Assembly (NCBI GenBank): GCA_964291395.2
Contig: OZ219856.1
Coordinates: 1,984,001 to 2,048,000 of the forward strand
Source: Alphaproteobacteria bacterium
GTDB taxonomy: Bacteria > Pseudomonadota > Alphaproteobacteria > UBA2966
Length of the DNA: 64,000 bases
Direction: 5' to 3'
This document shows positions 16,507 to 62,100 of this stretch, piece by piece. The notes under the pieces were generated by a model. That model was not told the origin of the DNA. It made no database searches and was given only the letters and a program-made list of their open reading frames with translations. The translations under genes were made by a program, and so were the position numbers. Numbering within the stretch: the stretch's first letter is position 1; every line of letters begins with the position of its first letter.

Positions 16507-16548
16507 GGGCTCCGGTCCGTCCCGCCATCAAGTCAAGCCGCTGCCCAA

Positions 16549-39201: not shown

Positions 39202-40959
39202 TCACCGCAAAGCAGCAGCAGCCGGGGCGTTCACCTGGACGGTAACGATATCGACGTCATGATATTGCTGGTGGCGAACGGAAGACGCGAGGTGCCGAAG
39301 CAGCCGGAGGGAAACCTCGTGCTCGACCGGTGTCTCGTCGCCTCGGTCCCCGAGCAGCGCGAGCCGGTCCTGAATGTTCTCCCCCCTCGGTGCGATCGCA
39401 AACTCCAGCACCGCGCCGCCGTTTCCTCGATAGGCAACCAGTCGCAGGCGCCGATCGGATCCTTCTCGGCCTTCGTCCGATTTGATGAGGCTCAGCAAGG
39501 TCTCCTCAGCGACCGCGTCAAGGCGAGCCGCCATCCCGCCATCCCAACCGCCACGGGACGCGAACGAGCGGAGGAACTCCCCGATCTTGGGCAGAGCCGA
39601 GAGATCGAGTTCCGCCTCCATCCGGCTTCGGCGGGACTCGGTCATCTCCAGGAACAAGGTCATGAAGATGGCCGCCAACCCGCCGGAGGTCATCCCATTG
39701 GAGAGCAGGCCGCCCGCGAAACCGGATGCGAACTCCGGGAATATCATGCCGTTTTGGAACCCGACCCCAATCCAGAAAGCGACGCCGGCGATCAGACCCT
39801 TCCGGTGGTCGATTCCGTCCTGAAGCAGGACCTTGATGCCGACCAGGAAGAGCATCGCCATCAGTATGGCGAGGTAGCCCGCGACGACGGGGCCCGGTAT
39901 CGCGAGAACCACGGCCAGGGCCTTCGGAAGGAACGCCAGAAGGATGAATATCGCCCCGGTGGCGATTCCGACGCCGCGCGCCGCGACGCCCGTGAGCTCG
40001 ATCAGCGATGCGCTCACCGACAAAGCGGTGTTTGGCACGGTCCCGGCGAAACCGCACAGCAAGTTGCTGAGTCCGTCGACGTTCACCGCACCCTGCACCG
40101 CGCGGAAATCCACCGCGCGTCCCTGTCGCCACGATACGCTCTGAACGGCGACGCAGCTGCTGATCGAGCGCAGTGTCACGATCAACGTCACCAGCAGGAA
40201 TGCCGGGACAAGCGACCAGAAGGCCGGCCCGAACTCGAGATCGAGACCGGGCCATTCGACGCTCGGAACGCCGATCCAGGGAGCTTCGGCAACACGGTCC
40301 GTGTCGTAAAGTCCGAACAGCGCGGACACCAAGGAGCCGGCAACCACCCCGAAGACGGGAGCCCAGAGACGTAGCGCCCCCCCGGCCCTCAGCGCGATGC
40401 AGACGATGACGAGTACGGTGGCAACGGCGCTCAACGGCGCGACGTGCGCCGGGCTTCCGTCCGGCACCTCGGTCAGCATTCCAAACACGACCGGCATGGC
40501 CGTGACCGGCACCAACATGAGCACCGTTCCCGAAACGGTCGCGGTCAGGATCCGCCGGAACAGCGCGATCCGCGCGGACAGGACGAACTGGAACAGTGCC
40601 GAAATGACAATCAGGGTTGCGAGCAGCGCCGGGCCGCTTTTCTCCATGGCTTCGATGCAAAGCCAGATGAAGGCCACGGAGCTGCTCATTACGAGCACGT
40701 GGTTGCACCCGATCCGACCGTAACGCACCGCTTGCAGGGCGGTGGCCGCGCCGCAAACCGCGACCGCCGCGAACACCGCCCATGACAGGTAGGTTTCGCT
40801 CGCGCCCGCGGCCCGCATCACGACGGTGGGAATCAGGATCGGTAGGGCGACGGTCAGAACTGTGAGCTGCAGGCCGAGGCCGAGACCGAGCGCCACCGAA
40901 ACTCTTTCGTCGGGCTGGTAGCGGACTCCCCCGCCAGAAGTGGAGTCGTTTCCGCTCAT
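39202..40959 (-). CDS. NCS2 (xanthine/uracil permease-like) transporter fused to a C-terminal degenerate anti-sigma-type HATPase_c domain; probable SupE-like permease
   Basis: About 440 aa polytopic core (LGLQ, ATALQ, DGLSNLLCGFAGTVPN, TGVAAR, F.PK...IPGPV); about 140 aa soluble tail (LSALPKIGEFL...LDAVAEE...SLRLLRHLASSV) with RsbW/SpoIIAB-like pattern. Confidence 0.8.
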   Translation of the reverse strand: MSGNDSTSGGGVRYQPDERVSVALGLGLGLQLTVLTVALPILIPTVVMRAAGASETYLSWAVFAAVAVCGAATALQAVRYGRIGCNHVLVMSSSVAFIWLCIEAMEKSGPALLATLIVISALFQFVLSARIALFRRILTATVSGTVLMLVPVTAMPVVFGMLTEVPDGSPAHVAPLSAVATVLVIVCIALRAGGALRLWAPVFGVVAGSLVSALFGLYDTDRVAEAPWIGVPSVEWPGLDLEFGPAFWSLVPAFLLVTLIVTLRSISSCVAVQSVSWRQGRAVDFRAVQGAVNVDGLSNLLCGFAGTVPNTALSVSASLIELTGVAARGVGIATGAIFILLAFLPKALAVVLAIPGPVVAGYLAILMAMLFLVGIKVLLQDGIDHRKGLIAGVAFWIGVGFQNGMIFPEFASGFAGGLLSNGMTSGGLAAIFMTLFLEMTESRRSRMEAELDLSALPKIGEFLRSFASRGGWDGGMAARLDAVAEETLLSLIKSDEGREGSDRRLRLVAYRGNGGAVLEFAIAPRGENIQDRLALLGDRGDETPVEHEVSLRLLRHLASSVRHQQYHDVDIVTVQVNAPAAAALR

Positions 40960-41286
40960 ACCGGGAGCGAGCCCCCGCGAGCGTTATCTACGCGGCCGAA
41001 AACGTGAGACTTCATCGCCTGACAACTTCAACAATAGTTGCTACAAATGGTGAAATTATCTTGCTATGCGGCCCTCAGGCGCGGCGTCCGTGGATATGAT
41101 AAACAGACCGGCACGCCGGCCGAAAAGGTGGGAACCTTTATCCTGCGCGAGGTTGTCGAAGACTGTCATGAGACGGCACGGCATGGGCTCGAACCCGGGA
41201 CATATTCGGTGCCGTCCCGCTGTCGCCCACCTCCTCAGCCGCGATCGGCTTCGGCGGTGAGTGCAGTGTCTTCGGAGGGTCAGCCG

Positions 41287-42477
41287 ATGAAGACCGATCT
41301 GCGCGCGAAGCAGTGGGCGGCGAAGTATCCCGACCTCGGAACCGCCCCGCTGCCGACCGAGCCATATGTTTCGGAAGAATATTTTGCCCTGGAACGCGAC
41401 CGGGTCTTTCAGCAGTGCTGGCTGAACGTCGGGCGCGTCGAGGAGATCCCGAAGGCAGGAGACTACTTCGTGCGGGAGATTGCCATCTGCCGCGCCTCCG
41501 TTCTGGTGATCCGGGGCGCTGACGGTGTCGTGCGCGGCTTTCACAATGTCTGCTCGCACCGCAGCAACAGGCTTGTATTGGATGAGCGTGGGGCATGCGG
41601 GAGAACCCTGCATTGCCGGTTCCACAACTGGACATATGACGACAAGGGCATGCTGATACATGTTCCCGATGAAGAGAATTTCCACAACTTCGACAAGAAG
41701 GATCACGGCCTGACGCCGGTGAACACGGACATCTGGGAAGGCTTCATCTTCATCCACCTCGGCTTCGATCCGGCCGAGTCGCTGCGGGAGTATCTGGGCG
41801 GTGTCGCGGACCGTCTCGACAACTGCCCGTTTCATGAGATGAAGCTGTTCCAGACCTACAGGGTGGAGGAACAGGCCAACTGGAAGGTCGGACTCGATGC
41901 ACAGAACGAACTTTATCATTTCCCCATGCTGCATGGCCGCGCTCTGGGCAACCAGTTTATGGTGAACGGCGAGAGGCAGTGTCGTTATCTGGACGTCACG
42001 TTGTTCAAACGCCACAGCACTTGGTCCTGCGAATACAATCCAGACCAGAAACCGACCCCTCTCACGAAAAAACTCTTCGCATTCGACGGCATAATTCGTT
42101 CGTTCGAGATCCCGCGGATGATCGGCGACATGGATTATTTCACCGTGTTTCCGAACTTCGTCATCCTGCTTTACCGGTTGGGAACTACGGCGGCCTACAT
42201 GACCTACCAGTTTTGGCCGCTGTCCGTCGATCGGACGATCTGGGAAACGAGTATCTATTTCCGGGAGCCCCTGACGATACGGGAGAAGCTCCGGCACGAA
42301 TACTTCAAGCGTATCTCTCTCGACACGCTGCAGGAGGATTCAGCCGCGCACGAGACTGTACAGGCAGGTCTCGCCTCGCGTGCCAAGTCACATGTGGTCC
42401 TGCAGGACAGCGAAATCCCGATCCGCTACTTTCACAAAGTGCTGGAGGATTGTGTCGGGTTTTATCGGCAGGCATAG
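41287..42477 (+). CDS. Rieske non-heme iron oxygenase alpha subunit
   Basis: Rieske CSH...CRFH, NWK...ELYH....H mononuclear iron ligands, C-terminal ED; ATG after GGAGG. Confidence 0.92.
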   Translation: MKTDLRAKQWAAKYPDLGTAPLPTEPYVSEEYFALERDRVFQQCWLNVGRVEEIPKAGDYFVREIAICRASVLVIRGADGVVRGFHNVCSHRSNRLVLDERGACGRTLHCRFHNWTYDDKGMLIHVPDEENFHNFDKKDHGLTPVNTDIWEGFIFIHLGFDPAESLREYLGGVADRLDNCPFHEMKLFQTYRVEEQANWKVGLDAQNELYHFPMLHGRALGNQFMVNGERQCRYLDVTLFKRHSTWSCEYNPDQKPTPLTKKLFAFDGIIRSFEIPRMIGDMDYFTVFPNFVILLYRLGTTAAYMTYQFWPLSVDRTIWETSIYFREPLTIREKLRHEYFKRISLDTLQEDSAAHETVQAGLASRAKSHVVLQDSEIPIRYFHKVLEDCVGFYRQA

Positions 42478-42494
42478 GCGTCGCCGCGACACAA

Positions 42495-42818
42495 TCAGTC
42501 TTGCGGGACGAAACGCAGCGGATCGCAGGCATCGACCGCCTCGCGACGCTTGTAAAGTTCGACCAGGGTGGAAACTTCCACTAGCGACAAAGACATGAGG
42601 TAGAGCCGATGCGCCGGCGCTGGCATGACCGCGCCGAAATAATCCTCCAAGTACCCAATTATTTCGTCCAGCCTCGACACCATCGCGTCGTAGAATGCAC
42701 GGATCTCGTCCATCGAGGACTCGGCCTTCTTCTCAGTTCTGGCGCGTTCCGGTTCCAGCGCCCAGTCCAGAAACGGCACCAGCTCCTCGAAAGGCTCCGG
42801 CAGCATGGGTTCGACCAT
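42495..42818 (-). CDS. Small conserved hypothetical helical protein
   Basis: LPEPFEEL.PF.DWA....R..K...SSMDEIRAFYDA pattern; RBS AGGAG; immediately downstream of the TPP enzyme. Confidence 0.7.
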   Translation of the reverse strand: MVEPMLPEPFEELVPFLDWALEPERARTEKKAESSMDEIRAFYDAMVSRLDEIIGYLEDYFGAVMPAPAHRLYLMSLSLVEVSTLVELYKRREAVDACDPLRFVPQD

Positions 42819-42844
42819 CGTCGTTCGCTCTCCTGTTTTCCCGG

Positions 42845-44509
42845 CTACACCTTGCCCTCAATGGCAACTTCGATCAGGTGGGGGGCGTCCGAAGCGAGCG
42901 CGCCGCGCACCGCGTCCGCAAGCTCGTCCGGCTCCGCGACACGGGTTCCCGCGACGCCCATGCCCGCGGCCATCTCGAGGAAGCCTAACGGAGGATCAAC
43001 TAGGTCCATCCCGTGGTATGGCAGGTTGGAAGCCACGCCGAAGCGTCGCCGGTAGATGTCGAGATTGTGCTTGAGAATCCGGTATTCGCGATTGGCGAGG
43101 ATAACGAAAAGGATTGGCAGCCGGTGATGCGCCGCCGTCCACAATGCCTGAATGCTGTACATCGCCGACCCGTCGCCGGAGATACAAAACACCGATCGCT
43201 CCGGACAGGCGAGCTTGACGCCGAGGGCGCCGGCGATACCCTGACCGATCCCGCCGCCGCGGCCTCCGAAATAATAGCCGGGGCCGCGAAAGTCGAACGC
43301 ACGCGGGATCTCGCGACTGCCGGTGATCGCTTCCTCTACGATCACGGTCTCCTCTGGCGCCACGGCCGCCAGCGTCTCCAACGCGAGCGCGACCGGCATC
43401 GGCCGCCGTTCCCGCCCCATTTCTAGGAGCGCGCGCCGGGATTTCCGTTCCTTTTCCCGAAGTACCGCGAAGCTCTCGTTACGGTTGTCGGCGGCGGCGG
43501 CGAATGCGGCCGGGCGGTCTGACAGCACCAGCTCGGAGACCGCTTCCAAAGCGGGCCCGAGGCCGGCAATCAGGCCGGTTGCGAGCCCGCAATTGCGGGC
43601 GAGGCGTTCCGCCACCTCCTCGATTTGAACCACCGCCGCACCGGACGGGAACGGCCCGGTGGGCGCGTACCAGACCTCCTCGAAGAAGGGACCGCCCACC
43701 AACAGAACTAGGTCGGCGTCGCCCAGGCTCTGCGCAATGCTCGCCGCATCGGAGGAGAGGCGGCCCCGGAAGTTGGGATGTGCGTTCGGAATCGGCTGGT
43801 GCTGATGGACGAACTCGGCCCAGATCTTCGCGCCGGTCGCCTCCGCAAGCTTCAAGACGGCATCGCCCGCACCCGCCCGCGCGACGTCGTCCCCGATCAC
43901 GATCGCGGGTTCGGCGGCGGCCAGGAGTTGCCGGGCGATGTCGCGGACGCCCTCAGGGTCCGGCGCGGGGGCGCGGTAGAGTCTGCCTGAGCCGACGGCG
44001 GCGATATCGGTCTGCTGCTCCATCACATCGATCGGTAGGGAGACGAAAACCGGGCCCGAAGGGGGATCGTGGGCGGTCTTGAAGGCGCGCCGGATGATCG
44101 GGGCGATCTCGTCAGCGGTTTCGGCCTGGACGCTCCATTTCACCACGGGTGCCGCCATGGCCACTAGATCGTGGCCGAGGAGCGGGTCGCGCAGCCGAAG
44201 GCGGGTGTCCTGCTGTCCTGCCGTAAGCACCATCGGCGAGTTGGCGCGCAGCGCGCCGTAGATCATGCCGATGGCGTTGCCGAGGCCGGGTGCCACGTGG
44301 AGGTTGACCACCCCGGTGCCGCCACCGGCTTGGGCGTAGTAGCTCGCGGCGCCGACGGCAACGCCTTCGTGCAGCGCCAGCACGTAGGAGAGCGCCGGGT
44401 ACCGGGCCAAGCTGTCGATCAGCGGGCTCTCCGTGGTGCCGGGATTGCCGAATAGATGCCGCACCCCTTGCGCCAGAAGGCTCTCCATGAAGACGTCGTG
44501 CCCGTGCAT
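42845..44509 (-). CDS. Thiamine pyrophosphate-dependent enzyme, benzoylformate decarboxylase-like
   Basis: FGNPGTTE, LHE, NLHVAPGLGN, TAGQQ, GDGSAMY...N TPP-binding motif. Confidence 0.9.
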   Translation of the reverse strand: MHGHDVFMESLLAQGVRHLFGNPGTTESPLIDSLARYPALSYVLALHEGVAVGAASYYAQAGGGTGVVNLHVAPGLGNAIGMIYGALRANSPMVLTAGQQDTRLRLRDPLLGHDLVAMAAPVVKWSVQAETADEIAPIIRRAFKTAHDPPSGPVFVSLPIDVMEQQTDIAAVGSGRLYRAPAPDPEGVRDIARQLLAAAEPAIVIGDDVARAGAGDAVLKLAEATGAKIWAEFVHQHQPIPNAHPNFRGRLSSDAASIAQSLGDADLVLLVGGPFFEEVWYAPTGPFPSGAAVVQIEEVAERLARNCGLATGLIAGLGPALEAVSELVLSDRPAAFAAAADNRNESFAVLREKERKSRRALLEMGRERRPMPVALALETLAAVAPEETVIVEEAITGSREIPRAFDFRGPGYYFGGRGGGIGQGIAGALGVKLACPERSVFCISGDGSAMYSIQALWTAAHHRLPILFVILANREYRILKHNLDIYRRRFGVASNLPYHGMDLVDPPLGFLEMAAGMGVAGTRVAEPDELADAVRGALASDAPHLIEVAIEGKV

Positions 44510-44973
44510 ATCGCTTGTTCCTGCAGCTCAGATCGCGCTGGACCGTCTTCGATATCCGGCCGAGTCGTGGCTTGCCGCTGGGCTTAACCTCGTGCCGCGG
44601 CAGCATACGACTGCGGCAAGCCACGGCTCGATTTATCGCACAGTCTGGACCGGTTTTCGAGCGGCCACCAGACCAGGGGAAGGAGCACCGCACCAAACGC
44701 CCGCACCATTCAACGCGTCCTTACTGTAAGTCCCGAAGATCGCAAGCCTGGAGACAAAACTGAAGACGTTGAAGAACCGGAACCCTGGTTGTGGATTCGA
44801 ACATGACCATTTTTGGCCCGGTAGAATCCCTGAAGGCATGCCTGCCGAGCGCCTGGGATGTACTCGCCACGCTGCCACCAAATTCTTGCATGTCCGCCAC
44901 CAAAATATGTATGCCAGGCAAATCGCATTTGCCCGCAAAGTTGTGGCACTCTCTCGGTCGGGGAGATAATTCG

Positions 44974-50900: not shown

Positions 50901-53900
50901 CGTCGTCGGCATGACGTTCCGCAATTTCGGTTCGGAGACGGTGACCCTGGAAAAGATGATCGTGCCCGCGCCGCCCGGCTTCTCGGTCACGGAGCTTGCG
51001 ACGATCCCGACGGCGTTCGTCTCGGCGGCGCTGTCGTTCGAGCTCTCGGGGCTGAACGCCGGCGACCGCGTGCTGATCCACGCCGGCGCCGGCGGGGTCG
51101 GGCTCGCGGCGGTCCAGCTTGCCCAGGCGGCGGGCGCGGAAGTCTTCGCCACGGCGAGCGCGCGCAAGCGCGACTATCTCCGCTCGCTCGGCGTGAAGCA
51201 CGTGTCCGACAGCCGCACGACGGCGTTCGGCCAGGAAATACTCGACGCCACCGGCGGCGCCGGGGTTGACATGGTGCTGAACAGCCTGACCGGCGAGGGC
51301 TTCATCGAGGCGAGCCTTTCATGCCTGGCCCACGGCGGCCGCTTCGTGGAGATGGGCCGGGTCGACATCCTGAGTGAGGACGAGATGGCGGCGGCGCGGC
51401 CCGACGTCACTTACGCCATCCTCAAGATCGACGTCCTCAAAGAGGAAGAGCCCGCGCGGGCCGGGGAGATCCTGCGGCGGGTGATGGAGCGGCTCGCGGC
51501 CGGCGAGCTGACCCCGCTCGTCCACGCCCGATGGCCCGTCGCCGAAGCGGGATCCGCGATGAAGTGCATGCAGGGCGCGCGGCACATCGGCAAGATCGTC
51601 TTTACCAACTCGCCGCTCGCCAGGGGAACCTTACGCGAGGACCGGACCTATCTGGTGACCGGCGGGCTCGGCGGCATCGGCTGCGCAGTGGCCGGCTGGC
51701 TGGCGGATCGCGGCGCCGGCGTCATCGTGCTCAACGGCCGGCGGCCACCGGATCCCGAGGTCGCGGAGGCGATCGAGGCGCTGCGCAGGCGCGGAGCCAC
51801 CGTTCAAGTGGAGCTCGCGGATGTGACCGAGTCCGAGGCGGTGGACGCCATGCTGAAGCGGATGGACGCCGATCTTCCGCCGCTTGGCGGCGTGATCCAC
51901 AGCGTCGGCGTGCTGTCCGACGCCGCAATCGGCAATCAGAATTGGGAAAACTTCGAAGCGGTGCTGTGGCCCAAGGTCCTGGGGGCCTGGCACCTGCACA
52001 GGGCGACCGTCGGACGCGATCTCGACCTGTTCGTTCTCTTCTCGAGCGTCGCTGGCGTCCTCGGCAATCCGGGCCAGGCCAACCACGCGGCTGCCAACGC
52101 CTTCCTCGACCAGCTCGCCGCCCATCGCCGCGCGCTCGGACTCGCCGGCCAGTCCATCGCCTGGGGCGCGTGGTCGGAGATCGGCGAGGCCGAGGAGCAG
52201 CGCGAGCGGATGACCCGGCGCTCCGCGTCAGGCGGGATCGAGTGGATCACCCCGCAGCAGGGCCTCAGGGCCTTCGACCGGCTGGTGCGCGAGGACGCCA
52301 CGACAGGCGTGGTGCTGGCACGGGACTGGGAGGCGTTCGGCGAATCCCTCGAGAGCCGCCCGCCGTTTCTGGAAGACCTTCTGTCCGACGGCCAGGACAA
52401 GGCTGCGGACGACGCACCGGCCGACGACCTGCTCACCCGCCTGCGGGAGGCACCCGCGGCGACGCGCGGGGAGGTGCTCGCGGCGTTCCTGCAAGGGGAG
52501 GTCAAGGCCGTGCTGAGACTGCCGACCTCGCCCTCGCCCACAGTCGGATTCTTCGATCTGGGCATGGATTCCCTGATGGCGGTGGAGCTGCGCAACCGCC
52601 TGAACCGCGCCTTCGTAGGCGCCTACACGGCGTCCAATACCGTGGTGTTCGACTACCCCGACATCGCCGCGCTCTCCGCCCACCTGGTGGATGAAACTGC
52701 CGAGGTCGTCGGCGCGGACGCGCCCGCGACGACGCCGGAACCCGAGACGCCCCCGGAGCCGGCGACCCGGCCGGCGGCGCGACGCGACGACAGCACCGAC
52801 CCCGACGCCGTCGCCATCGTGGGCATGGCGTGCCGGTTCCCGGGCGCGCCGGACTTGCCGGCATTCTGGAATCTACTCGATTCCGGCGCGGATGCGGTGG
52901 CGGACGAGCGCCGGGAGGCTGGCCCCTGGAGCGATTTCGTGGACAACCTGCCCACGCCGTACGCCGCCTATGGCAGGGCCGGGTTCGTCGACGGAATCGA
53001 TATGTTCGATGCGCGGTTCTTCGAAATCTCGCCGATCGAGGCCCGGCTGATGGACCCCCAGCAACGCATGCTGCTGGAGACGACCTGGCAGGCGCTGGAA
53101 GACGCAGGAATCGATCCCGACAGACTGAAGGGAAGCAACACCGGCGTCTATGCCGGTATCGCCTCCAGCGAATACCGCGACCTGATGAAGACCGGCGATT
53201 ACGGAATCGGCTATCTGAGTACCGCCGCGAGCATGGCGGTCGGGCGGCTCTCCTACCGCTTCGGCCTGGCGGGGCCGACCATGCCGGTGGAACTGAACTG
53301 CGCTTCTTCGCTGGTTGCGGTTCACCAGGCCGTCACGGGCCTGCGCACGCGCGAGGCGGACCTTGCCCTTGTCGGCGGCGTGAGCGCCGTGCTCTCGGCT
53401 CCGGTCACCAGGGAAATGGCGGATCTGGGGCTCCTGTCGCGGGGCGGCGTGTGCAGAACGTTCGACGCCGAGGCGGACGGCTTCGTGCGCGGCGAGGGCT
53501 GCGGGATGGTCGTTCTCAAGCGTCTCTCCGACGCGGAGGCCGACGGCGACCGCATCTGGGCGGTGATCCGCGGCTCGGCGGTAAACCAGAACGGGGCGAG
53601 CGCCGGGGCCACGGTTCCGAACGGCCCCGCACAGGAACGGGTGATCGAACAAGCCCTTTCGCGGACCGGCTTCGCCCCCTCGGAGGTGGACTACCTGGAG
53701 GCGCACGGCGCTGGATCGGCGTTCGGCGATCCGATCGAGGTGCAAGCGGCGGCGGCGGTCTACGGCCAGGACAGGGTCGAGGACCGCCCGCTGTTGATCG
53801 GCTCGGTGAAAACCAATATCGGGCATCTTGAATCCGCGGCCGGGGTCGCCAGCCTCATCAAAACGGTGCTGGCGATGAGCCGGGGGACGATCCCCAGGAC

Positions 53901-55323
53901 CCGGAACTTCCGGACCCCGAGCCCGCTCATCGAGTGGGACCGTCTGCCCGTGCGGGTGACAGACGAGGCGATGGACTGGCCGTCCGATCCCGACAGGCCG
54001 CGCCGGGCAGGGGTCAGCGCATTCGGAATTTCCGGTGTGAACGCCCATGTCGTGCTGGAGGGATACGGTAGCGCCAACGGCATCGCCTCCAACGCCTCGG
54101 ACGGGCCTTCGTCGGCGGGACCCGCCAGGCGTGTCGCCGTGTCCCTGCCGGAACCGATCGCGGCACCTTCGGACGATAAGGGCGCGCTCACCGCGCGCGC
54201 GGTTCGTCTGTTGCCGCTCTCGGGCAAGTCGGAGGATGCGCTGCGGGCGCTCGCGGGGCGGTATCTCGCTTGGCTCGACGAGCAGGCCGACGGACATTCG
54301 ACCGGGGACGGCGCCCCCGGCCCGCTGCTCTCCGACATGGCCTGGACCGCCGGCGTCGGGCGAAGCCATCTCACGTACCGGGCCGGTGTGGTGTTCGGCG
54401 ATGCCGCTTCGCTGCGGGACAGGCTGATGGCGCTCGCGGCAGCGGCGGAGGTCGCGAAACCGGCGACCGCGGCGAAGGTCGCTTTCGTCTACCCGGGCGA
54501 AGGCGTCGACTGGGCGGGCATGGGCGAAGCGCTCTACGAGAGCGAGCCGGTGATGCGGGCGGTGCTCGACCGTTGCGAGGCGGCGATACGCGACGAGCGG
54601 GGCGAGTCGCTGCTCGACGTGATGTTCGGTCGGACCGGGTCGGCAGGAACCCTCGACGACCCCGCGTGGTCGAAGCCCGCGACCTACGCGATGACATGCG
54701 CGCTCACGGCGCTCTGGTCGAGCGTCGGCATCCGGCCGAGCGTGGCGCTGGGGCACGGCGCGGGGGAGATTGCGGCGGCGCGGGCCGCCAGCGTGTTCGG
54801 CTTGGAGGACGGGTTGCGGCTCGCGGCCGTCCCCGGCGAACCGGAGACGGTGCTGGAAGGCGTCGCGGTCGCACCGCCCTCAATCGGCCTGGTGAGCCGT
54901 GCGGCGGGTCGTCCGGTCGGGCCGAACGACGGCCTGGACGGGGCCTACTGGCGCCGCCAGCCGCAGGAAGTCGCACCGATCGAGCGCTGCGCGGAGACCC
55001 TGGCGGAGCTGGGTGTCGAGGCGGTCATCGAGATCGGCCCGCGGAGCGCAATGGGGCCGGCGCTCGCCCGTGCCTTGCCGGCGTCGTCAAACGGCGCGGG
55101 CGCGCCGGAGCCGATCGAGAGCCTGCGGTGGCCGTCGGAGGACGGGGAAGAACCGGCGGCGCTTCCCGATGGCGGCTTCGCGGACGCGGTGGCCGGGGCC
55201 TATGAGGCGGGTCTTCCGGTTTCCTTCGCGGGCCTCTTCGCGGGCGAGGCCAGGCGCCGGGTCGCGCTTCCCGGCTATCCTTTCCAGCGCCGACGGCACT
55301 GGCTCACGAAGCGGGAACGGTAA
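44974..55323 (+). CDS. supA: Type I polyketide synthase KS-AT-DH-cMT-ER-KR-ACP-KS-AT(inactive), SupA-like (sponge-symbiont ubiquitous PKS)
   Basis: KS1 DTACSS/HGTGT/NIGH; AT GHSLG; DH HRVFGRLIAP; MT LEVGAGTG; ER LIHAGAGGVG; KR TGGLGGIG; ACP LGMDSL; KS2 LNCASS; AT2 GHGAG. Start placed at MTEP after GGGAG. Confidence 0.9.
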   Translation: MTEPRSPDAYRECNGPGLPTPLAPIAIVGMACRFPGADGLAAFWRMLEAGESGVIEGVPGSGVGRIGELFPDDAGLRPACRFGAYLDDLDLFDAAFFRISPVEAQLLDPQQRMMLETCWRALEDAGMDPDSLNGSRTGVYAGISNNEYRGLILETASPDEPAVSLYSVTGTSFNTAIGRVAFALGLEGPALALDTACSSSLVAIHQAVTGLQRGEADLALAGGVHAILSGRLLAMRANAGMLSPDGRCATFDAAANGYVRGEGCGIVVLKRLAQAEADGDRIWAVIRSTALNQDGASPGLTVPSGPAQEKVIEAALQQAGLEPAEVDYVEAHGTGTEVGDPIEAEATGTAYGRGRTEGQPLLIGSVKTNIGHLEAAAGVAGVIKTVLAMKRGVIPRHLHFQEPSPEIDWERLPLKVTATPTDWPRATDRPPRAGISGFGWSGTNAHVVLEGYGESEGADAEGPEHWTTGLPRSVPVSQPASVLQAAPAAETIVPRGTRFLPLSGRSEGALRELANKYLSWLDERTGDNSAEMLADMAWTAAVGRSHFGHRAGVVFRDADSLRDALRALEEADGTVAPRAAKRVAFAFTGQASQWPGMGEALYASEPVVRAVLDRCDTVLAESRGDSLLDVMFGRPEAAGDLDDPQWKQPAIYALECALVELWASVGVRPDVVVGHSLGEIAAAYTADVFGLEEGLRFAAARGGLIGALPGEGAMAAVFAPESRVAAALEEHNAASGGIGLCIAADNGAHQVISGPTVEIEAILERLEAESVRVARLRKSPAYHSAMVEPALDDLEAALAETAFAPPSIPFVSNLTGRALEAGEAPDAAYWRRQAREPVAFRACVETLAEQGVDAVIEIGPHAVLGPMAEMAWPESAGAAPPAVLSSLQRPARDEEPPPAGSGGGFVEAVAGAYEAGLAVSFPGFFAGEKRRRIALPGYPFQRERYWVEGSRRQRSGTGHPLLGTRHESASGETAFDTEVFPSDPGWLNDHRVFGRLIAPGALYGAMAASATRAEGSEAPVVEDFQMQSALIFPDEDAEEGSAEPGRRMQVLLDDTEDGAFRRVRVLSRGEGEDGWTLHAEGRISTGAAGSPQGASPLDVEGLKSDLSPVNLAAYYRAKSAVGIDLGPSFRTLEALWARAGEAVAEVALPAGRGDTPLDVHPLVLDGCFQTFAAARNPDGGEEGVTYLPFAWERLWLTGSLPERLVCHVRVREGPEGAATDAGNGEMPEVWAADLRLYDPDGALVGELAGFTVKRATRAALLSAVEGIDELLYEVVWQDRALAPGIAPADFLTSPSEISATTNLFPEYLASVDVDAADRAALLADLEQLSEAYALATLDRLGWKRVAGEKVESAELRESLNVGVEHERLFRRMLEMQARAGVLEQAGDGFVVTVASGEPLPEGLVDDPDAWAGEMAVRYAHGTTEIGLFRRSADALADVLQGRMDPLTLLFSSGEPTAADLYLKAPVARAANRLLADAVAALLAELPEGRKLRVLEVGAGTGSATAAVLPELPEGRYDYTYTDISAGFFAEAESRFGGAEAAIDYRVLDIEKDPVEQGFDRHGYDLVIASNVLHATRYLNETLAHCLEVLAPSGQLVALENLRGQGWLDLTFGQLDGWWRFADEYRPHHALATPAVWRQALGDAGFEDIAILGFDESDPNANPDRGVIAAQGPSDVTEAPGAWVVAADRGGVAAELAAELAAQNQMVVLAGAEAGPDVPSVPAGAGIVEAFVETTRRESWKSLLEDLPTDLPLAGIAHLVGLGGHGAQATTEEMAEDARHATASALALTQALMESDLTLSKGLWFVTRGAQVLERERGGQLAGAALWGFGKVAAREAPRLQPRMLDLDPADAELPPDLADEFLHPDAETHIAHRFGRRRGARLIRAAAVADRLTLPEEPGWELEPDAGGSLDAIGVMSMPERRLEQGEVRAAVESFGLNFRDVFIAIGVVDDVMGGEFCGRVLEVGEGVTSVAVGDRVVGMTFRNFGSETVTLEKMIVPAPPGFSVTELATIPTAFVSAALSFELSGLNAGDRVLIHAGAGGVGLAAVQLAQAAGAEVFATASARKRDYLRSLGVKHVSDSRTTAFGQEILDATGGAGVDMVLNSLTGEGFIEASLSCLAHGGRFVEMGRVDILSEDEMAAARPDVTYAILKIDVLKEEEPARAGEILRRVMERLAAGELTPLVHARWPVAEAGSAMKCMQGARHIGKIVFTNSPLARGTLREDRTYLVTGGLGGIGCAVAGWLADRGAGVIVLNGRRPPDPEVAEAIEALRRRGATVQVELADVTESEAVDAMLKRMDADLPPLGGVIHSVGVLSDAAIGNQNWENFEAVLWPKVLGAWHLHRATVGRDLDLFVLFSSVAGVLGNPGQANHAAANAFLDQLAAHRRALGLAGQSIAWGAWSEIGEAEEQRERMTRRSASGGIEWITPQQGLRAFDRLVREDATTGVVLARDWEAFGESLESRPPFLEDLLSDGQDKAADDAPADDLLTRLREAPAATRGEVLAAFLQGEVKAVLRLPTSPSPTVGFFDLGMDSLMAVELRNRLNRAFVGAYTASNTVVFDYPDIAALSAHLVDETAEVVGADAPATTPEPETPPEPATRPAARRDDSTDPDAVAIVGMACRFPGAPDLPAFWNLLDSGADAVADERREAGPWSDFVDNLPTPYAAYGRAGFVDGIDMFDARFFEISPIEARLMDPQQRMLLETTWQALEDAGIDPDRLKGSNTGVYAGIASSEYRDLMKTGDYGIGYLSTAASMAVGRLSYRFGLAGPTMPVELNCASSLVAVHQAVTGLRTREADLALVGGVSAVLSAPVTREMADLGLLSRGGVCRTFDAEADGFVRGEGCGMVVLKRLSDAEADGDRIWAVIRGSAVNQNGASAGATVPNGPAQERVIEQALSRTGFAPSEVDYLEAHGAGSAFGDPIEVQAAAAVYGQDRVEDRPLLIGSVKTNIGHLESAAGVASLIKTVLAMSRGTIPRTRNFRTPSPLIEWDRLPVRVTDEAMDWPSDPDRPRRAGVSAFGISGVNAHVVLEGYGSANGIASNASDGPSSAGPARRVAVSLPEPIAAPSDDKGALTARAVRLLPLSGKSEDALRALAGRYLAWLDEQADGHSTGDGAPGPLLSDMAWTAGVGRSHLTYRAGVVFGDAASLRDRLMALAAAAEVAKPATAAKVAFVYPGEGVDWAGMGEALYESEPVMRAVLDRCEAAIRDERGESLLDVMFGRTGSAGTLDDPAWSKPATYAMTCALTALWSSVGIRPSVALGHGAGEIAAARAASVFGLEDGLRLAAVPGEPETVLEGVAVAPPSIGLVSRAAGRPVGPNDGLDGAYWRRQPQEVAPIERCAETLAELGVEAVIEIGPRSAMGPALARALPASSNGAGAPEPIESLRWPSEDGEEPAALPDGGFADAVAGAYEAGLPVSFAGLFAGEARRRVALPGYPFQRRRHWLTKRER

Positions 55324-55375
55324 GAGGGAAGCGGCTGTCGCTTCGTGACGGTATGCTCATACGCGCGCGGAAATC

Positions 55376-56275
55376 TTAGTAAACGCGGTGCCTCTCAAGG
55401 AACTCCCGGAGCAGCTCGGCACACTCTTCCGGCCTTTCCAACTGCAGCAAATGGGTCGCCTCAGGCAGGAAATCGTAGTCCACGGCGGACACTTGCCCCA
55501 GGTCGAAGGTCGGAAGGTACGCGTTTCTGATCGTCGGATCGCCACCGATGACTTTTGTCGGGCAGTAGAGCAGATCGAGATCCAACAGCGGGAAAAAACT
55601 CCGCCCGTAGTCCATGAGTTGGGCCTCGTATTCGCGAGGGCAGCGTAGTTCGTATTGCTCGTCGCTCGCGGATTGTCGAAGCGTTGTCCGGGCCATGAGT
55701 TCGTGCACGCCGGGAGCAACCCGTGCAAAGGTCGGCAGGATCCCCAGGAACTCGGCAAACGCCTCACGTGTCTTGAAGCGGTAGCCTCGCTTTCGGATCA
55801 TTTCGGCCGCGCGTTCCGCAGCTTCATGAAGCTCTACCTGACTAGCGCCCGGTTTGCACAGCGGCGGATCGAACAGAATCAGTGCCGAGTAACGACTGTA
55901 CAAAGAGAGAAGCGGCATGAGCGTTGCGAGGGAGTGAAAAACGCCCACGATCGGTTTTTCACCGTATTCGCGGGAGATCGCGTCGAGAATGAGATCGTGA
56001 TCGGAGATCAGCGTCGGAATGTTGTGATCCCGCCGGGCTCCGACGTCATTCCAGCCGTGGTTCCTGAGGTCGTAGACCATCAGGTCGAAATCGCCGGCGA
56101 GCAGCGACCAGAACGGATAATAGAGATCGACCGCCAGGCCGTTGCCATGGGTCAGCAGGAGCCGGGGGCCCGATGGATTGCCATGCCGCCGCACCGTGGT
56201 CACGGTGTTCTCGTCGAGCCGGACTTCGCATGTCGAAACGGGCTCGGGTATCGTCCATACTGCTTCTTCCGCCAT
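55376..56275 (-). CDS. supD: Alpha/beta hydrolase, SupD-like (possible thioesterase/acyltransferase)
   Basis: LLTHGNG, YDLRNHG, nucleophile elbow VFHSLA, LFDPP, THLLQLE; next to the ACP and PKS. Confidence 0.8.
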   Translation of the reverse strand: MAEEAVWTIPEPVSTCEVRLDENTVTTVRRHGNPSGPRLLLTHGNGLAVDLYYPFWSLLAGDFDLMVYDLRNHGWNDVGARRDHNIPTLISDHDLILDAISREYGEKPIVGVFHSLATLMPLLSLYSRYSALILFDPPLCKPGASQVELHEAAERAAEMIRKRGYRFKTREAFAEFLGILPTFARVAPGVHELMARTTLRQSASDEQYELRCPREYEAQLMDYGRSFFPLLDLDLLYCPTKVIGGDPTIRNAYLPTFDLGQVSAVDYDFLPEATHLLQLERPEECAELLREFLERHRVY

Positions 56276-56452
56276 GGCGGGGTCCGGTTTCTTCCCGACG
56301 CGGAGCTGGGAACAGGGGCACGGCACTGGCGGGACCGTCGCCCACCCCATGGCGGAAATGCCAACCGCCTCCGGGTTCGGAGGCGGCCGGACTTCGTTCA
56401 CTTCGTATCGGAGACCATATCCCGAATGCGCGCAGGCGTCCCCGAGTTCTCG

Positions 56453-56680
56453 TCAGCCGCGTGCATCGATATGCGCGACAAGATCCTGCAGGGTCTTGAA
56501 TTGCAGGCAGTCGTCCGCGACCAACCCCAGGCCGAACTCCTCGTTGACCGACTTGTAGAACGCTACCGCTTCCACCGAAGAAATCCCGACGTCGCTGAAC
56601 TGAGCGTTGAAATCGGGCTCATGGTCGAGGTCGAAATTATCAGCGATGATTTTGCTGATGCGCTCTTTAGTTGAAGCCAT
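56453..56680 (-). CDS. supB: Free-standing acyl carrier protein, SupB-like
   Basis: 75 aa acidic four-helix pattern; FSDVGISSVEAV attachment region; EEFG, FKTLQDLV. Confidence 0.82.
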   Translation of the reverse strand: MASTKERISKIIADNFDLDHEPDFNAQFSDVGISSVEAVAFYKSVNEEFGLGLVADDCLQFKTLQDLVAHIDARG

Positions 56681-56907
56681 AACCGTTCACTCCCTATTCG
56701 ACGGTGATAATGAGGCGCGAGAAGCACGCCAATGCAGGACGCAGGCACGGCGTCACGATACCGAGACAAGGTGCCGCATACCGTGCTCACTTTGGTATGC
56801 GTCTGCGCACTCGGTCAAGCCCTTTCAATTCCGCCGGCCGTCCAGCTTGGCCGAAAAACGTCCGTGCACTAACATTCCAACTCTGGACCACTCAGTGGGG
56901 CTGGTCA

Positions 56908-57108
56908 GTGATCGGTGTGCCGGATGAGACGTGGGGCGAAGCGATTCTCGCCGTGATCGTGGCTCTGCCCCGATCCGATCTTGTCTCCGGCAACGGCGAG
57001 GACGCCCTCATCGCGCATTGCCGACGGTTCATTGGCGGCCACAAGGTGCCTCGCCGGGTCCGCTTCGTCGACGCCTTACCCAAGAGCGCGATTGGGAAGG
57101 GCGCGTGA
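56908..57108 (+). pseudogene. C-terminal remnant of an AMP-binding acyl-CoA/acyl-ACP ligase
   Basis: VIGVPDETWGEAILAVI...HKVPRRVRFVDALPKSAIGK (A10 lysine motif); no upstream core domain. Confidence 0.75.
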
Positions 57109-58724
57109 ACTACGATCTCGACACGCTCCGCGGAGATCTCTTCGGTGGCGTTACGTCAATGGTGGTGGCACTGCCGCTGTCGTTGGGCTTCGGCATAGCG
57201 TCAGGGCTGGGAGCGGCCGCAGGCCTGTACGGCGCGATCGCGGTCGGCTTTTTCGCGGCGGCGTTCGGCGGCACGCGAGCTCAGATTTCCGGCCCTACCG
57301 CGCCAATGACCGTCGCCATGGCGGTCATCGTCACAATTTATTCGACTAACCTCACCGAAGCCCTGACAGTGGTTGTCCTGGCCGGTCTGCTTCAGGTGAC
57401 TCTGGGCCTGTCGAAGGTCGGCCGTTTCGTGGCGTATACGCCACATATGGTCGTGTCCGGATTGATGTCCGGCATCGGCATCGTCATCATCCTCATGCAG
57501 ACCCTGCCGTTCGTCGGGGCGGCCGCTACGATGGGCGGCCCCATGGGCGCGGTCCGGGCGCTGCCGGAGGCCGTGAGCAATATCGACACCGGCGCATTCG
57601 CTATAGCCGCGGTGACGCTTGCCGTCGGTTTTCTCTGGCCGCGCCGGCTGGCGAGACTTGCGCCCGGCCCTCTGGTGGCGCTGATCGCCGGTACGGCCCT
57701 GGGCGTTCTGTGGCTGAACGACGCGCCGGTTATCGGGAAGATCCCGACCGGCCTGCCGAATCTGCAGTGGGATTTGCCGTCTGGCGACTTCCTGCTGTAT
57801 GCGCTGGAACCCGCGCTTATTCTCGCCCTGCTCGGCTCCGTGAACAGCCTCCTGTGCTCTTTGATCACCGACTCGCTGACCGGGAACCGCCACAACCCGG
57901 ATCGGGAGCTGGTCGGTCAGGGCCTCGGCAACATTGTCGCGGGGCTCTTCGGGGCAATGCCCGGCGCCGGTCACGGCGTAAACACCGTGGCCAACGTCCG
58001 CGCCGGCGGGCTGACGCCGATATCGGGCATGTTGTGTGCACTGCTTCTGCTGGGGGCGGTACTGGGCCTTGGCCGGTTCGTCGAGCCAATTCCTCTCGCC
58101 GCTCTCGCCGGCGTCCTGATGAAGGTCGGCTGGGACATCATCGACTGGCGTCTTCTCTCCCGGCTGCACCGCCTCCGGCGCGAACACCTGCTCGTCATGC
58201 TGATGACCCTGGTCCTCACGGTGTTCGTCGATCTGGTCACCGTCGTGGCACTCGGGCTGATCGCCGCGGGGATGGTCCAGGCGCGGCAGCTGGAGCGCCT
58301 GGAGCTTGACAGCGTGGTTTCGGTGCCGCTGCTGGACACGACGTTTTTCGACCAGGGGGAGGAGGAAGACCCCTATGCGGCGCGGGTCGGCCTCGTTGCT
58401 CTCAGGGGGAGCTTCACCGTCGCCTCATCCCATAAGCTGGTGGGTGTGATCGGCGAGGACATCAAGGATCACGAGGTCGTCATCTTTGATTTCTCCGATG
58501 CCACCTATATGGATGACAGCGCCGCCATGGTGATGGAGAGACTCATGGACGTCGCGGACGAGGCACGGACCGGGTTCATCGTGATGGGCCTCTCGGGTTC
58601 AGTCGAGAACACCCTCCACGCGCTCAATATCCTGAAGAAGGTTCCCGAGGATCATGTGGTCGACAAGCTGGACGACGCTCGGCAGGTCGCCAAGAATCTC
58701 CTCGGCCTCGGAGATGATCGGTGA
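57105..58724 (+). CDS. SulP/SLC26 family anion transporter with C-terminal STAS domain
   Basis: GDLFGG..VALPLSLGFG, GLYGA, QISGPT, HNPDRELVGQG.GN, LAALAGVL; STAS VIFDFSDATYMDDS; GTG start at 57105. Confidence 0.92.
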   Translation: MNYDLDTLRGDLFGGVTSMVVALPLSLGFGIASGLGAAAGLYGAIAVGFFAAAFGGTRAQISGPTAPMTVAMAVIVTIYSTNLTEALTVVVLAGLLQVTLGLSKVGRFVAYTPHMVVSGLMSGIGIVIILMQTLPFVGAAATMGGPMGAVRALPEAVSNIDTGAFAIAAVTLAVGFLWPRRLARLAPGPLVALIAGTALGVLWLNDAPVIGKIPTGLPNLQWDLPSGDFLLYALEPALILALLGSVNSLLCSLITDSLTGNRHNPDRELVGQGLGNIVAGLFGAMPGAGHGVNTVANVRAGGLTPISGMLCALLLLGAVLGLGRFVEPIPLAALAGVLMKVGWDIIDWRLLSRLHRLRREHLLVMLMTLVLTVFVDLVTVVALGLIAAGMVQARQLERLELDSVVSVPLLDTTFFDQGEEEDPYAARVGLVALRGSFTVASSHKLVGVIGEDIKDHEVVIFDFSDATYMDDSAAMVMERLMDVADEARTGFIVMGLSGSVENTLHALNILKKVPEDHVVDKLDDARQVAKNLLGLGDDR

Positions 58725-58762
58725 GGAATCAAGTGTTTCCAGATTGATCGTCTCCGATAAAG

Positions 58763-58860
58763 TTATATCTTGAGCAGCTTCTGGGCCGCCTCCGTCGGCG
58801 CACCGTCTCGCGTCACATACATGTAAAGAAGGGACTGCGACACGCCGAGCCGCTGTGCGG
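58763..58860 (-). pseudogene. C-terminal HTH remnant of a resolvase/invertase (serine recombinase)
   Basis: AQRLGVSQSLLYMYVTRDGAPTEAAQKLL resembles the resolvase HTH tail; catalytic domain absent. Confidence 0.5.
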
Positions 58861-59163
58861 GCGATCTAATTTGCGGAGCGGCGCTTCGGCGGTGCCCCCG
58901 GCGGGTGTGTGTTGGTCGGCGCGTGCATTGGACGCCGTTCAACAGGCGAGTCCCCAACATTGGGGAAGTGCGGTAGCGCGCAATCCGACTATCCTCACCT
59001 AACGTGCAGAGGTGAGAAAGTAAGCAGGCAAGCCGTAGGCGGCCGCACCGACAGGGACAGGCAGGTTTGCGGCCGGGAATATCGGCAACGCGGCATAAAA
59101 GATGGCTGCCGTTCCAAGACGGACGGCGGGATCATGCCGTTCAGGACTCGAAAGCGGTAAGCG

Positions 59164-59502
59164 ATGGATGTTGCGACGGAACGGAAGAACGACGTCTTAT
59201 CGGTCCTGGTGAGCGGACGCATCGACGGCACCAACGTCATGCAATTCGAAGAGACGGTCAGAACCGTGATCGAGGAGAACGACCACGCCGTGGTCATGGA
59301 CCTTGAGCGACTTTCCTACATCAGCAGTGCGGGCCTTCGCATCCTTCTCCTGATCGCCAAGAGCCTCATGGGCCGGGATGCCAAGCTGGTGCTCTGCGCC
59401 ATGTCGGATCAGATGCGCCAGGTCTTCGAGACAGGCGGTTTCGACAAAATCATCCCAATCCACCCGTCCAGGGCCGAGGCGCTTTCTTCCTTCGGTGCCT
59501 GA
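59164..59502 (+). CDS. STAS domain protein (anti-sigma factor antagonist, RsbV/SpoIIAA-like)
   Basis: SGRID, MDLERLSYISSAGLRILL with the phosphorylatable Ser, VFETGGF. Confidence 0.92.
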   Translation: MDVATERKNDVLSVLVSGRIDGTNVMQFEETVRTVIEENDHAVVMDLERLSYISSAGLRILLLIAKSLMGRDAKLVLCAMSDQMRQVFETGGFDKIIPIHPSRAEALSSFGA

Positions 59503-60704: not shown

Positions 60705-60787
60705 CCGCTGGACCAGGACGGCGCGCCGGCAGGCCGAACGCATCTAACCCGATATCACTGAGGATGGCCCGAAGAGTGGGCTGCCCC

Positions 60788-61030
60788 CGTGGGCTTGCCC
60801 GGTCGGGAGAAGTCCAGCCTCACGCCGCTCATCCAGGCCCCCAGGTCGAGCTCCTTGCTGATGAACTCGGGTCCGTTGTCGACCCGGATGGTCCTGGGCA
60901 TGCCATGGACCCTGGTGACCCGTTCCAGCGTCGTCACCACGTCCGAGCCGCGGTAGCTCTGCCGGACGTCGACTGCCGGCGAAAGCCGGCTGAAGGCGTC
61001 GGCAATCATCAGGATGCGGATGCGCCTGCC
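60788..61030 (-). mobile_element. IS3-family transposase (integrase core) fragment
   Basis: GRRIRILMIADAFSR...PRTIRVDNGPEFISK.LD......GV.LDFSRPGKPT; truncated on both sides. Confidence 0.85.
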
Positions 61031-61482: not shown

Positions 61483-61502
61483 GGCGAAAGACCCGGCTCT
61501 CC

Positions 61503-61753: not shown

Positions 61754-61984
61754 CTAGAAGTCCGCAGCCTTGCGGATGACGTAGGTATAGACGCCGGCTT
61801 CCTCTTCCACCGACACGAGCTCCTGGTCCGTCGTCTCGCAGAACAGCCGAATATCGATGTAGGACGTGGGGTCCGTTGCCTGCACGGTCAGCGTCTCGCC
61901 GATGACGACATCCTTCAACGCCAGCCGTGTTCTGATCAACGGCATGGGACAGTTTAGCCCCTTAGCGTCCAGCGTCGCCCCCAT
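61754..61984 (-). CDS. tusA: Sulfurtransferase TusA/SirA family protein
   Basis: LDAKGLNCPMP, ATDP, DI..FC, YVIRK. Confidence 0.9.
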   Translation of the reverse strand: MGATLDAKGLNCPMPLIRTRLALKDVVIGETLTVQATDPTSYIDIRLFCETTDQELVSVEEEAGVYTYVIRKAADF

Positions 61985-62100
61985 CGCTCGCCCCCGCGCG
62001 ACCAACTAGCGTTTGAAATACCTTGGAGACACTCTCGATAAGATTCGCTCCGCAGTCTAGCGAAACCGCCAAGGCTCGCAAAACGCGGGAAAACGAGCCT

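Follow-up and report, generated by a model that had tools for sequence, protein, structure and literature searches.

The sup (sponge symbiont ubiquitous PKS) cluster encodes SupA, a type I polyketide synthase (PKS) with the domain order KS-AT-DH-MT-ER-KR-ACP-KS-AT, and reportedly also a permease, SupE, attributed to work of Fieseler et al. from 2007. In a Plakortis clone (Della Sala et al. 2013, Table 1, PMC3908369), a 557-aa homologue of 'Permease SupE (ABE03914)' and then a 115-aa anti-anti-sigma gene lie just upstream of swfA, and the passages around that table call SupE only a permease, with neither an NCS2 assignment nor an RsbW-like tail. The gene supA is described as widespread in, and exclusive to, high-microbial-abundance sponges, the sup product is only proposed (mid-chain-branched fatty acids) and the organism carrying supA is left open (PMC4245539). 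Because of this exclusive occurrence, the bacteria carrying sup are presumably sponge symbionts. Here we describe a 64-kb window (G000:C1:1984001-2048000) from an alphaproteobacterial genome of 4.16 Mb and 64% GC, which contains a rearranged sup cluster with a permease probably of this type. The permease is composed of an NCS2 (SLC23-type) membrane domain and a C-terminal tail which, judged from sequence and predicted structure, is a kinase-dead RsbW/SpoIIAB-type domain.

The fusion is a variant of two kinds already known, namely transporters to which a regulatory domain is fused, and components of partner switches. In partner switches, RsbW-like domains and STAS domains are cognate partners. 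HsbA is a partner-switch STAS protein with a non-sigma output. Other such systems are MlaB-MlaF (PMC7367683) and SypA/SypE (PMC10120452), in which a STAS protein binds another target. Fused signalling domains are rare on secondary transporters. The SulP/SLC26 family, which has the sister fold of NCS2, also bears a C-terminal cytoplasmic domain from the partner-switch toolkit; SLC26 proteins carry the antagonist half (STAS), whereas the NCS2 family described here carries the kinase/anti-sigma half, and the two show no genomic linkage. Two decades of work on the SLC26 STAS domain have brought no clear partner logic in bacteria, and the sister fold here bears the complementary half. No description of an NCS2-pseudo-RsbW fusion was found in full-text searches of a collection of open-access papers.

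The membrane part of the permease is recognized by Pfam Xan_ur_permease (PF00860) over residues 28-401 (E 7.9e-33, 114.1 bits against a cut-off of 27). The sole NCBIfam model passed is NF037981 (41.7 against 40), a broad one, and the protein is far under the cut-offs of pbuX (168 against 414) and TIGR00801 (136 against 292); it is therefore a divergent NCS2 member. The AlphaFold2 (AF2) model of the full-length protein, with a predicted local distance difference test score (pLDDT) of 82.9, possesses the 7+7 inverted repeat of 14 transmembrane helices (TM) that defines the UraA fold. Its top Foldseek matches are UapA (5i6c, E 2.2e-14, TMt 0.78), UraA (8omz, TMt 0.84) and SVCT1, with E values from 2e-14 to 1e-11, followed by SLC26Dg, prestin and BicA at E 5e-9 and weaker. 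The predicted fold places the permease in NCS2 and confirms that it has its fold in common with SulP, in agreement with the initial annotation of this region, which had assigned both families to one 7+7 fold. The NAT signature in TM10 of the family reads [Q/E/P]-N-x-G-x-x-x-x-T-[R/K/G]. The corresponding stretch of the permease, located by eye, is PNTALSVSAS, in which P-N is retained and the Gly, the Thr and the last basic/Gly position are changed. With so degenerate a signature, a canonical nucleobase is an unlikely substrate.

The initial annotation also held that the permease ends in an RsbW/SpoIIAB-like domain (39202-39621). Foldseek and hhalign agree with this assignment; the domain has ~135 residues and its folded part spans 39229-39627. 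Pfam is blind to it, since the isolated tail (last 152-172 residues) matches no family even at E<=10 and the PF13581 profile does not recognize it. The AF2 model of the tail (last 157 residues, 39 homologues; pLDDT 74, predicted TM-score 0.70) contains, in order, a strand, two long helices, a β-hairpin, a short helix, a disordered loop and a further β-hairpin, and adopts the SpoIIAB-type Bergerat/GHKL fold. Foldseek against the PDB gives 16 matches at E<=1e-3, and the 14 listed are all anti-sigma Ser kinases, namely UsfX (8ih8_C, the best, E 9.3e-7, TMt 0.69; 8jzt), RsbW (6m36, 6m37) and SpoIIAB (1tid, 1l0o, 1th8). Histidine-kinase ATPase domains rank later, only at E>8e-3. The sequence relationship is in line with the fold. 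In hhalign, 46 tails align with nine stand-alone RsbW-like kinases (90.5%, E 1.4e-6, 49 columns), and the N-box EE is matched in this alignment. A profile of the 46 tails against PDB sequences retrieves only spurious designed armadillo-repeat matches and no kinase; the kinase relationship is seen only by fold and hhalign. In addition, BLASTP to one of the stand-alone kinases, a neighbouring gene, gives 28% over 110 aa (E 4e-4), and with a kinase from its own genome as the query the tail is the best match in the window (E 0.005). A precomputed PF13581 annotation is attached to three of the 120 tail homologues listed, and 18 of the 30 nearest tail matches in the ESM Atlas are in clusters holding PF13581 members.

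In the nine true kinases, the EE...N of the N-box, the DDG.PFDP motif (D89) and the GGLG lid (G115-G118) are all invariant. The tails, compared in 66 sequences, depart from this pattern in all three motifs. In the N-box (E-x-x-x-N), mapped from hhalign, the Glu is kept in 66/66 tails, and the Asn position is occupied by S28/T24/A5/N4/I3 (five commonest residues), so that Ser or Thr is present in 52 tails and Asn is left in four. For G1 (DxGxG), which like G2 was mapped by eye and by secondary structure and not by an alignment program, the Asp position holds A48/G7/S5/V3/T2, with no Asp among these five commonest residues. At G2, S-L-R-L stands in place of the GGLG lid, and in the tail and full-length models alike the loop equivalent to the lid is where confidence is low. 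Since the N-box Asn and the other ATP-binding motifs are lost, the tail is best described as a pseudokinase, that is, a kinase-dead RsbW/SpoIIAB-type GHKL domain. At the same time, E485, E486, E519 and H563 are invariant in the 66 diverse relatives, and N528 (65/66), R552 (65/66) and D531 (62/66) are nearly so. The tail is thus under strong constraint, though not for catalysis; its conserved polar and charged residues could make up a site, unconnected with ATP, for a ligand or a partner. Altogether, the tails resemble RsbW, SpoIIAB and UsfX in fold and secondary-structure order, are homologous to them in the N-terminal strand and the pair of helices, with the N-box EE in the matched stretch, and have STAS and PP2C genes as genomic company. 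They differ in forming the C-terminal end of a 14-TM transporter, whereas the kinases stand alone, and in having no N-box Asn (mostly), DxGxG Asp, GGLG lid or nearby sigma factor; the window tail, moreover, has no Pfam match.

The permease family is large and widespread. Of 8000 candidates scored against the tail region, 3257 proteins pass E<=1e-3, and among the 120 matches listed nearly all have 575-605 aa and a tail identity of 62-94%. An index-free search of 1.84 billion representatives gives 603 clusters (50% identity) at E<=1e-3; in the 150 of these that are listed, the tail forms the C-termini of ~570-597-aa proteins or belongs to shorter fragments. As the matches are C-termini of ~580-aa proteins or fragments, the tail is not met as a free protein. 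The family thus runs to thousands of ~580-aa proteins, always tail-bearing, which are named only 'purine/pyrimidine permease' or 'hypothetical protein' in databases. A genomic scan (one genome per species) yields 502 relatives, of which the best 80 loci were analysed, each with up to 10 kb on either side and several shorter (loci and genomes are numbered with the prefixes L and G). They are distributed over Alpha- and Gammaproteobacteria, Acidobacteriota, Gemmatimonadota, Latescibacterota, Nitrospirota, Nitrospinota, Binatota, Spirochaetota and unclassified bacteria (metagenome-assembled genomes), so that the family occurs in at least eight named phyla of uncultured bacteria. Their tails are 57-77% identical to that of the window, with a single locus at 49%, and the membrane domains of the eight best matches listed are 70-78% identical. 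In the permease tree (FastTree, 81 sequences, SH-like support only; L031 and L042 were left out because their cut regions contain an in-frame stop, and anchors truncated to <1500 nt were set for exclusion), the phyla are thoroughly intermingled. Among 41 relatives of the window genome, by comparison, the tail is confined to the window's genus (4/5 congeners, 0/35 others), and the window genome itself has three tail-bearing permease paralogues. This patchy distribution, combined with the high identity across phyla, suggests lateral exchange of the permease gene among co-resident symbionts. Seven Nitrospirales loci (L029, L037, L046, L057, L062, L064 and L082) contain a further permease copy, behind which come genes for a zeta-toxin-like kinase, a B12-binding radical SAM enzyme reminiscent of SwfC of the swf cluster, and a DUF502 protein.

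The permease is repeatedly linked to sup genes, which bears out the connection to the PKS drawn in the initial annotation. In the window, the 3510-aa PKS has, by its Pfam domain order, the SupA-type architecture, and the sup accessory genes (hydrolase, free ACP and permease) are all present; the permease is located 3.8 kb upstream of supA. Window genes were compared with the 80 permease loci by tblastn, on which the PKS counts rest because longest-ORF (open reading frame) calls gave antisense ORFs for the PKS in several high-GC loci. The PKS KS region is found in 18 loci, the PKS MT region in 17, the free STAS in 9, the hydrolase in 8, the acyl carrier protein (ACP) in 8 and the Rieske gene in 3, whereas the SulP membrane part, the SulP STAS, the thiamine pyrophosphate (TPP) enzyme and the Cys/Met pyridoxal phosphate enzyme are found in none. 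In the 18 loci the PKS gene is adjacent to the permease and its KS is 54-91% identical to that of the window. Two arrangements recur. In one, the order is supA-ACP-permease-hydrolase (L024 and L081, with variants in L025, L034, L049, L051 and L070); in the other, supA directly follows the permease (L027, L028, L039, L047, L071 and L084). Beyond supA, four proteobacterial clusters of the second arrangement contain the hydrolase (4/4, 55-72% identity) and the ACP (3/4), and neither SulP nor STAS (0/4). Moreover, 14 sup-linked permeases fall into two all-sup clades of seven rows each, in which five phyla are mixed.

The closest sup-bearing relative, G045, has a KS 91% identical to that of the window. 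In G045 (L118:2326-3905), the ACP gene is followed by the Rieske gene (70% identity) and the gene of the 107-aa protein (68%), on the other side of supA from where they are found in the window. There, the Rieske oxygenase, the 107-aa protein and the TPP enzyme are inserted between permease and supA. Because the same gene set occurs in G045 in a different order, the window is regarded as a rearranged sup cluster, and the Rieske oxygenase and the 107-aa protein might together tailor the sup product. The family described here is the sole permease met in the sup loci examined. As no other permease was seen inside sup clusters, we infer that it corresponds to the published SupE (ABE03914), which it resembles as a ~560-590-aa permease beside supA, hydrolase and ACP, and whose homologue in the swf clone precedes an anti-anti-sigma gene (PMC3908369).

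A second recurrent association concerns partner-switch genes. The neighbouring ORFs of the 80 loci were clustered, and Pfam was run on representatives of clusters common to at least four loci. Recurrent neighbours of the permease include a stand-alone HATPase_c_2 (RsbW-type) protein, a STAS protein, a response-regulator-SpoIIE phosphatase (RR-PP2C), a HAMP histidine kinase (HK) and a Peripla_BP_6 periplasmic binding protein (PBP). No sigma factor is present among the annotated recurrent clusters, singleton neighbours having been left unannotated. STAS, together with RsbW, RR-PP2C, PBP and HK, is located near the permease in nine loci. Six of these, from unclassified bacteria, have the order permease, a 284-aa unknown, RR-PP2C, RsbW, PBP and HK, with genes overlapping end to start from PP2C to HK, and then STAS on the opposite strand. 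The other three, from Nitrospirales, have the order permease, RsbW (minus strand), STAS, RR-PP2C, PBP and HK. A tenth locus, L028 in the alphaproteobacterium G045, contains PBP, HK and RR-PP2C upstream of permease-supA and has no STAS. The two STAS groups fall in separate permease clades, and between them the kinases are ~27% and the STAS proteins ~35% identical, which argues for two independent associations of permease and partner switch. The complete five-gene module is found at L030:12106-17595 and L055:10590-16497, and also in L020, L045, L050, L053, L085, L068 and L088.

The Nitrospirales genomes provide the strongest point for this association. There is one STAS match in the 2.5 Mb of G043 and there are two in the 2.8 Mb of G044, and in both genomes the permease (L055, L088) has a STAS gene 1 kb away. 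Of five more Nitrospirales genomes, G050, G052 and G053 have STAS at 0.9-1.0 kb from their second or third tail-bearing gene. This STAS is the only free STAS found in G050 and G052, and the only STAS match in G043. Altogether, STAS is within 1 kb of a tail-bearing permease in 5/7 Nitrospirales genomes. For one STAS and two permease genes in 2.6 Mb, we estimate a chance adjacency within 1 kb of roughly 0.2%; because the genomes are kin, the adjacency counts as one retained arrangement and not five events. A complex prediction for the tail with the free STAS of the window scored 0.02 against a mark of 0.32, without controls, and speaks neither for nor against binding. The earlier proposal that STAS is the partner of the tail has therefore gained comparative support, from nine loci in two clades and from the only free STAS found in some Nitrospirales, and binding of the two is plausible.

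The window itself contains only part of such a switch. Its free STAS (TIGR00377, 82.7 against a cut-off of 53.45) has the SYISSAG motif, which is conserved in 38 aligned relatives, and neither an RsbW kinase nor a PP2C accompanies it. Among the called genes of the 64 kb there is no sigma factor, PP2C or stand-alone HATPase_c_2 kinase, as had been noted before. The STAS is 79% identical in amino acids to a paralogue 105 kb off (L002, C1:2.153 Mb) that abuts an RsbW kinase, and 74% identical to another kinase-paired copy. The DNA likeness to L002 (86.9% over 421 nt) covers the gene and ~80 nt upstream and ends at the stop codon, and no kinase remnant was detected downstream (best tblastn match E 5.5). 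For these reasons the window STAS is considered an orphaned duplicate, and its sequence identifies it as a recently arisen paralogue of STAS genes that are paired with kinases at other loci of this genome. It is 47-50% identical to the permease-linked STAS of the six-genome group. The genome has nine STAS matches (seven free, one 355-aa frame and SulP), four stand-alone HATPase_c_2 genes and one SpoIIE phosphatase adjoining one of these kinases. Two STAS-RsbW pairs, L003 (G000:C1:2620072-2623446) and L004 (G000:C3:1051579-1054953), agree in locus coordinates, first 50 residues and blastn figures, and the genome is scored 9% contaminated. This pair of loci may represent assembly redundancy and not a true duplication, which would make the kinase count three rather than four.

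Taking these observations together, we consider it probable that the window encodes a SupE-type NCS2 permease with a pseudo-RsbW docking tail. The SulP gene is a bystander. The tail would serve as a cytoplasmic protein-docking module. Its likeliest ligand would be a free STAS antagonist, with a true RsbW kinase and an RR-PP2C governing its phosphorylation, and in other lineages this kinase and phosphatase would be wired to an HK with a PBP. Docking of STAS on the tail would then switch or tune transport. That the tail docks a free STAS antagonist specifically is a tentative proposal, drawn from gene neighbourhoods, to which we give slightly less than an even chance. A wider scheme is more doubtful still. 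There, the permeases would be direct outputs of partner switches, in which PBP and HK act on RR-PP2C, the dephosphorylated STAS leaves RsbW, docks on the dead tail and gates transport; the sister 7+7 families would each have taken one half of the switch (STAS in SLC26, RsbW in the SLC23-like family), and a permease regulated in this way would belong to the core genes of the sup clusters of sponge symbionts. The proposed switch resembles those of MlaB-MlaF, SypA/SypE and HsbA in its free STAS with a phospho-serine motif, its RsbW-type kinase and RR-PP2C, and the absence of a sigma factor from the operon, and differs from them in that the target would be a pseudokinase domain on a secondary transporter. 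If the tail indeed docks a phospho-regulated STAS, the permease would be controlled post-translationally by a partner switch, a new output class of this widespread module. For the sup cluster, a conserved non-canonical permease with a regulatory domain offers a handle open to test, and the tail identity of 57-77% across phyla points to gene exchange among the symbionts that reside together.

Several observations weigh against this picture. Concerning the tail, the sequence alignment to kinases by hhalign reaches only its N-terminal half, and the G1 and G2 positions were assigned by eye. Concerning the sup linkage, the window permease is outside both all-sup clades, in a 14-row clade with three sup-linked members, which also sets it apart from SupE; its sister, L009, shows no PKS; the supA of G005, from the same genus, has no permease in the 20 kb examined; and the other two paralogues of the window genome adjoin a methyltransferase with a betaine-type ABC system, and a TRAP transporter. 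The name 'SupE' is attached to none of the 120 listed database relatives, nor is it found in 8 clusters. Concerning the switch, 70 of the 80 loci have no partner-switch gene within reach, and in two of the seven Nitrospirales genomes (G051, G054) permease and free STAS are far apart. The STAS of the window is itself separated from the permease by 18 kb and may simply serve the true kinases paired with its paralogues.

The most serious alternative is that the tail is purely a structural or dimerization domain, like STAS in SLC26 dimers, with no separate ligand, and that the nearby partner-switch genes are coincidental or have another target. SpoIIAB-type domains and NCS2 transporters are both dimers, and the tail is conserved like the membrane domain (in L009, 76.6% against 77.8%), as expected of an integral part of the protein; the many loci without partner-switch neighbours fit as well. 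We nevertheless regard this alternative as unlikely. Three Nitrospirales genomes have the only free STAS detected in them within 1 kb of the permease, the same link to STAS arose in a second clade with another gene order, and the invariant E485, E486, E519 and H563, together with N528, suggest a binding site and not pure structure.

By a different route, the tail could bind the free ACP or SupA and thereby link transport with the sup pathway. The STAS domain of E. coli YchM/DauA forms a complex with ACP, and gene neighbourhoods are compatible with such a contact: supA, ACP, permease and hydrolase are neighbours in L024, L025, L070 and L081, L051 has the permease followed by hydrolase and ACP, and the order permease-supA-hydrolase-ACP is found in three of the four proteobacterial clusters. 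Most family members, including the two paralogues in this genome, are located far from PKS and ACP genes and yet keep the tail and its invariant residues, which makes this coupling improbable. It is very improbable that the tail is a membrane-tethered anti-sigma factor releasing a sigma factor according to transport state. Its best structural matches are anti-sigma factors, some solved with the sigma factor (8jzt, 1l0o), but no sigma-factor family is present among the recurrent neighbour clusters common to at least four loci (singletons unannotated), nor in the window.

The SulP protein of the window is a SulP/SLC26 transporter with a C-terminal STAS domain (Sulfate_transp PF00916, E 1.1e-73, 248.7 bits; STAS PF01740, E 1.6e-09, 37.9 bits). 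Its best NCBIfam match is BicA with 452.7 bits, under the cut-off of 880, and it is also under the DauA equivalog cut-off. The initial annotation listed it correctly, as it did the free STAS with YISSAG, the free ACP and the PKS, and treated all these genes as one island; the permease and the SulP/STAS genes are in fact at opposite ends of the rearranged sup cluster, and the latter two are not conserved with it. Of the 41 relatives, 12 have SulP, 5 the tail and 3 supA, and the three are uncorrelated. Within the genus, G001 has SulP and tail without supA, G005 has tail and supA without SulP, and in G002 and G004 the tail occurs alone of the three. None of 11 SulP orthologue loci contains a free STAS at up to 1.5 kb. 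On this distribution, the SulP-STAS gene is an unrelated neighbour at the edge of the sup cluster. Scarcely credible, consequently, is the model first put forward for the region, in which the two transporters form a heterodimer through docking of the tail on the STAS of the adjoining SulP, or the free STAS acts as a toggle, and import of bicarbonate or carboxylate is coupled to ACP/PKS lipid synthesis: it draws on the cognate pairing of RsbW-like and STAS domains, on the common 7+7 fold and on both transporter genes flanking the PKS in the window, but its own expectation of co-occurrence beyond chance is largely refuted for SulP by the counts in permease loci, sup downstream regions and relatives given above, and the coupling via SulP is left unsupported.

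The gene inventory is based on Pfam applied to longest-ORF calls across the 64 kb, and the order is detailed for 36-62 kb (Table 1).

Table 1 Features of the permease-sup region, with positions in the window
Feature	Position	Strand	Evidence
NCS2/SLC23-type permease, putatively SupE-type, with C-terminal pseudo-RsbW, 585 aa	39202..40959	-	Pfam Xan_ur_permease
Predicted kinase-dead RsbW/SpoIIAB-like (GHKL) domain, permease residues ~445-577	39229..39627	-	Foldseek, hhalign, ESM Atlas
Rieske non-haem iron oxygenase alpha subunit	41038..42477	+	Pfam Rieske + Ring_hydroxyl_A
107-aa protein, companion of the Rieske gene	42495..42818	-	no Pfam or NCBIfam match
TPP enzyme	42845..44509	-	Pfam
SupA-type type I PKS, 3510 aa, KS-AT-DH-MT-ER-KR-ACP-KS-AT	44791..55323	+	Pfam
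sup-cluster alpha/beta-hydrolase	55376..56401	-	Abhydrolase_6
Free ACP, 75 aa	56453..56680	-	PP-binding E 7.6e-10
SulP/SLC26 transporter with STAS, a neighbour outside the conserved system	56931..58724	+	Sulfate_transp + STAS
Free STAS anti-sigma-antagonist paralogue, 112 aa, no adjoining kinase	59164..59502	+	STAS E 1.8e-20
IS integrase (rve) remnant, edge of the region	60755..61009	-	Pfam rve E 1.2e-10, profile positions 30-102 only
TusA	61754..62005	-	Pfam

Within this region, the PKS gene has a GC content of 0.70-0.71 (window 44001-56000), against 0.61-0.64 in the flanking genes including the permease and SulP/STAS, which is consistent with its separate acquisition. No phosphopantetheinyl transferase gene is found in the 64-kb window, and L115 and L119 each have one. 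Just past the rve remnant, an ORF on the minus strand (61385-61657) starts like the N-terminus of an ACP, has no Pfam match and may be a decayed gene. Farther from the cluster, positions 3441-12790 contain a complete CoxG/small/large/medium molybdenum hydroxylase cluster (CO dehydrogenase or xanthine dehydrogenase family), together with CoxD/E-like AAA and VWA genes, XdhC and a MobA-like transferase. Two flavin-containing monooxygenase (FMO-like) genes are arranged in tandem on the minus strand at 15028-17931.

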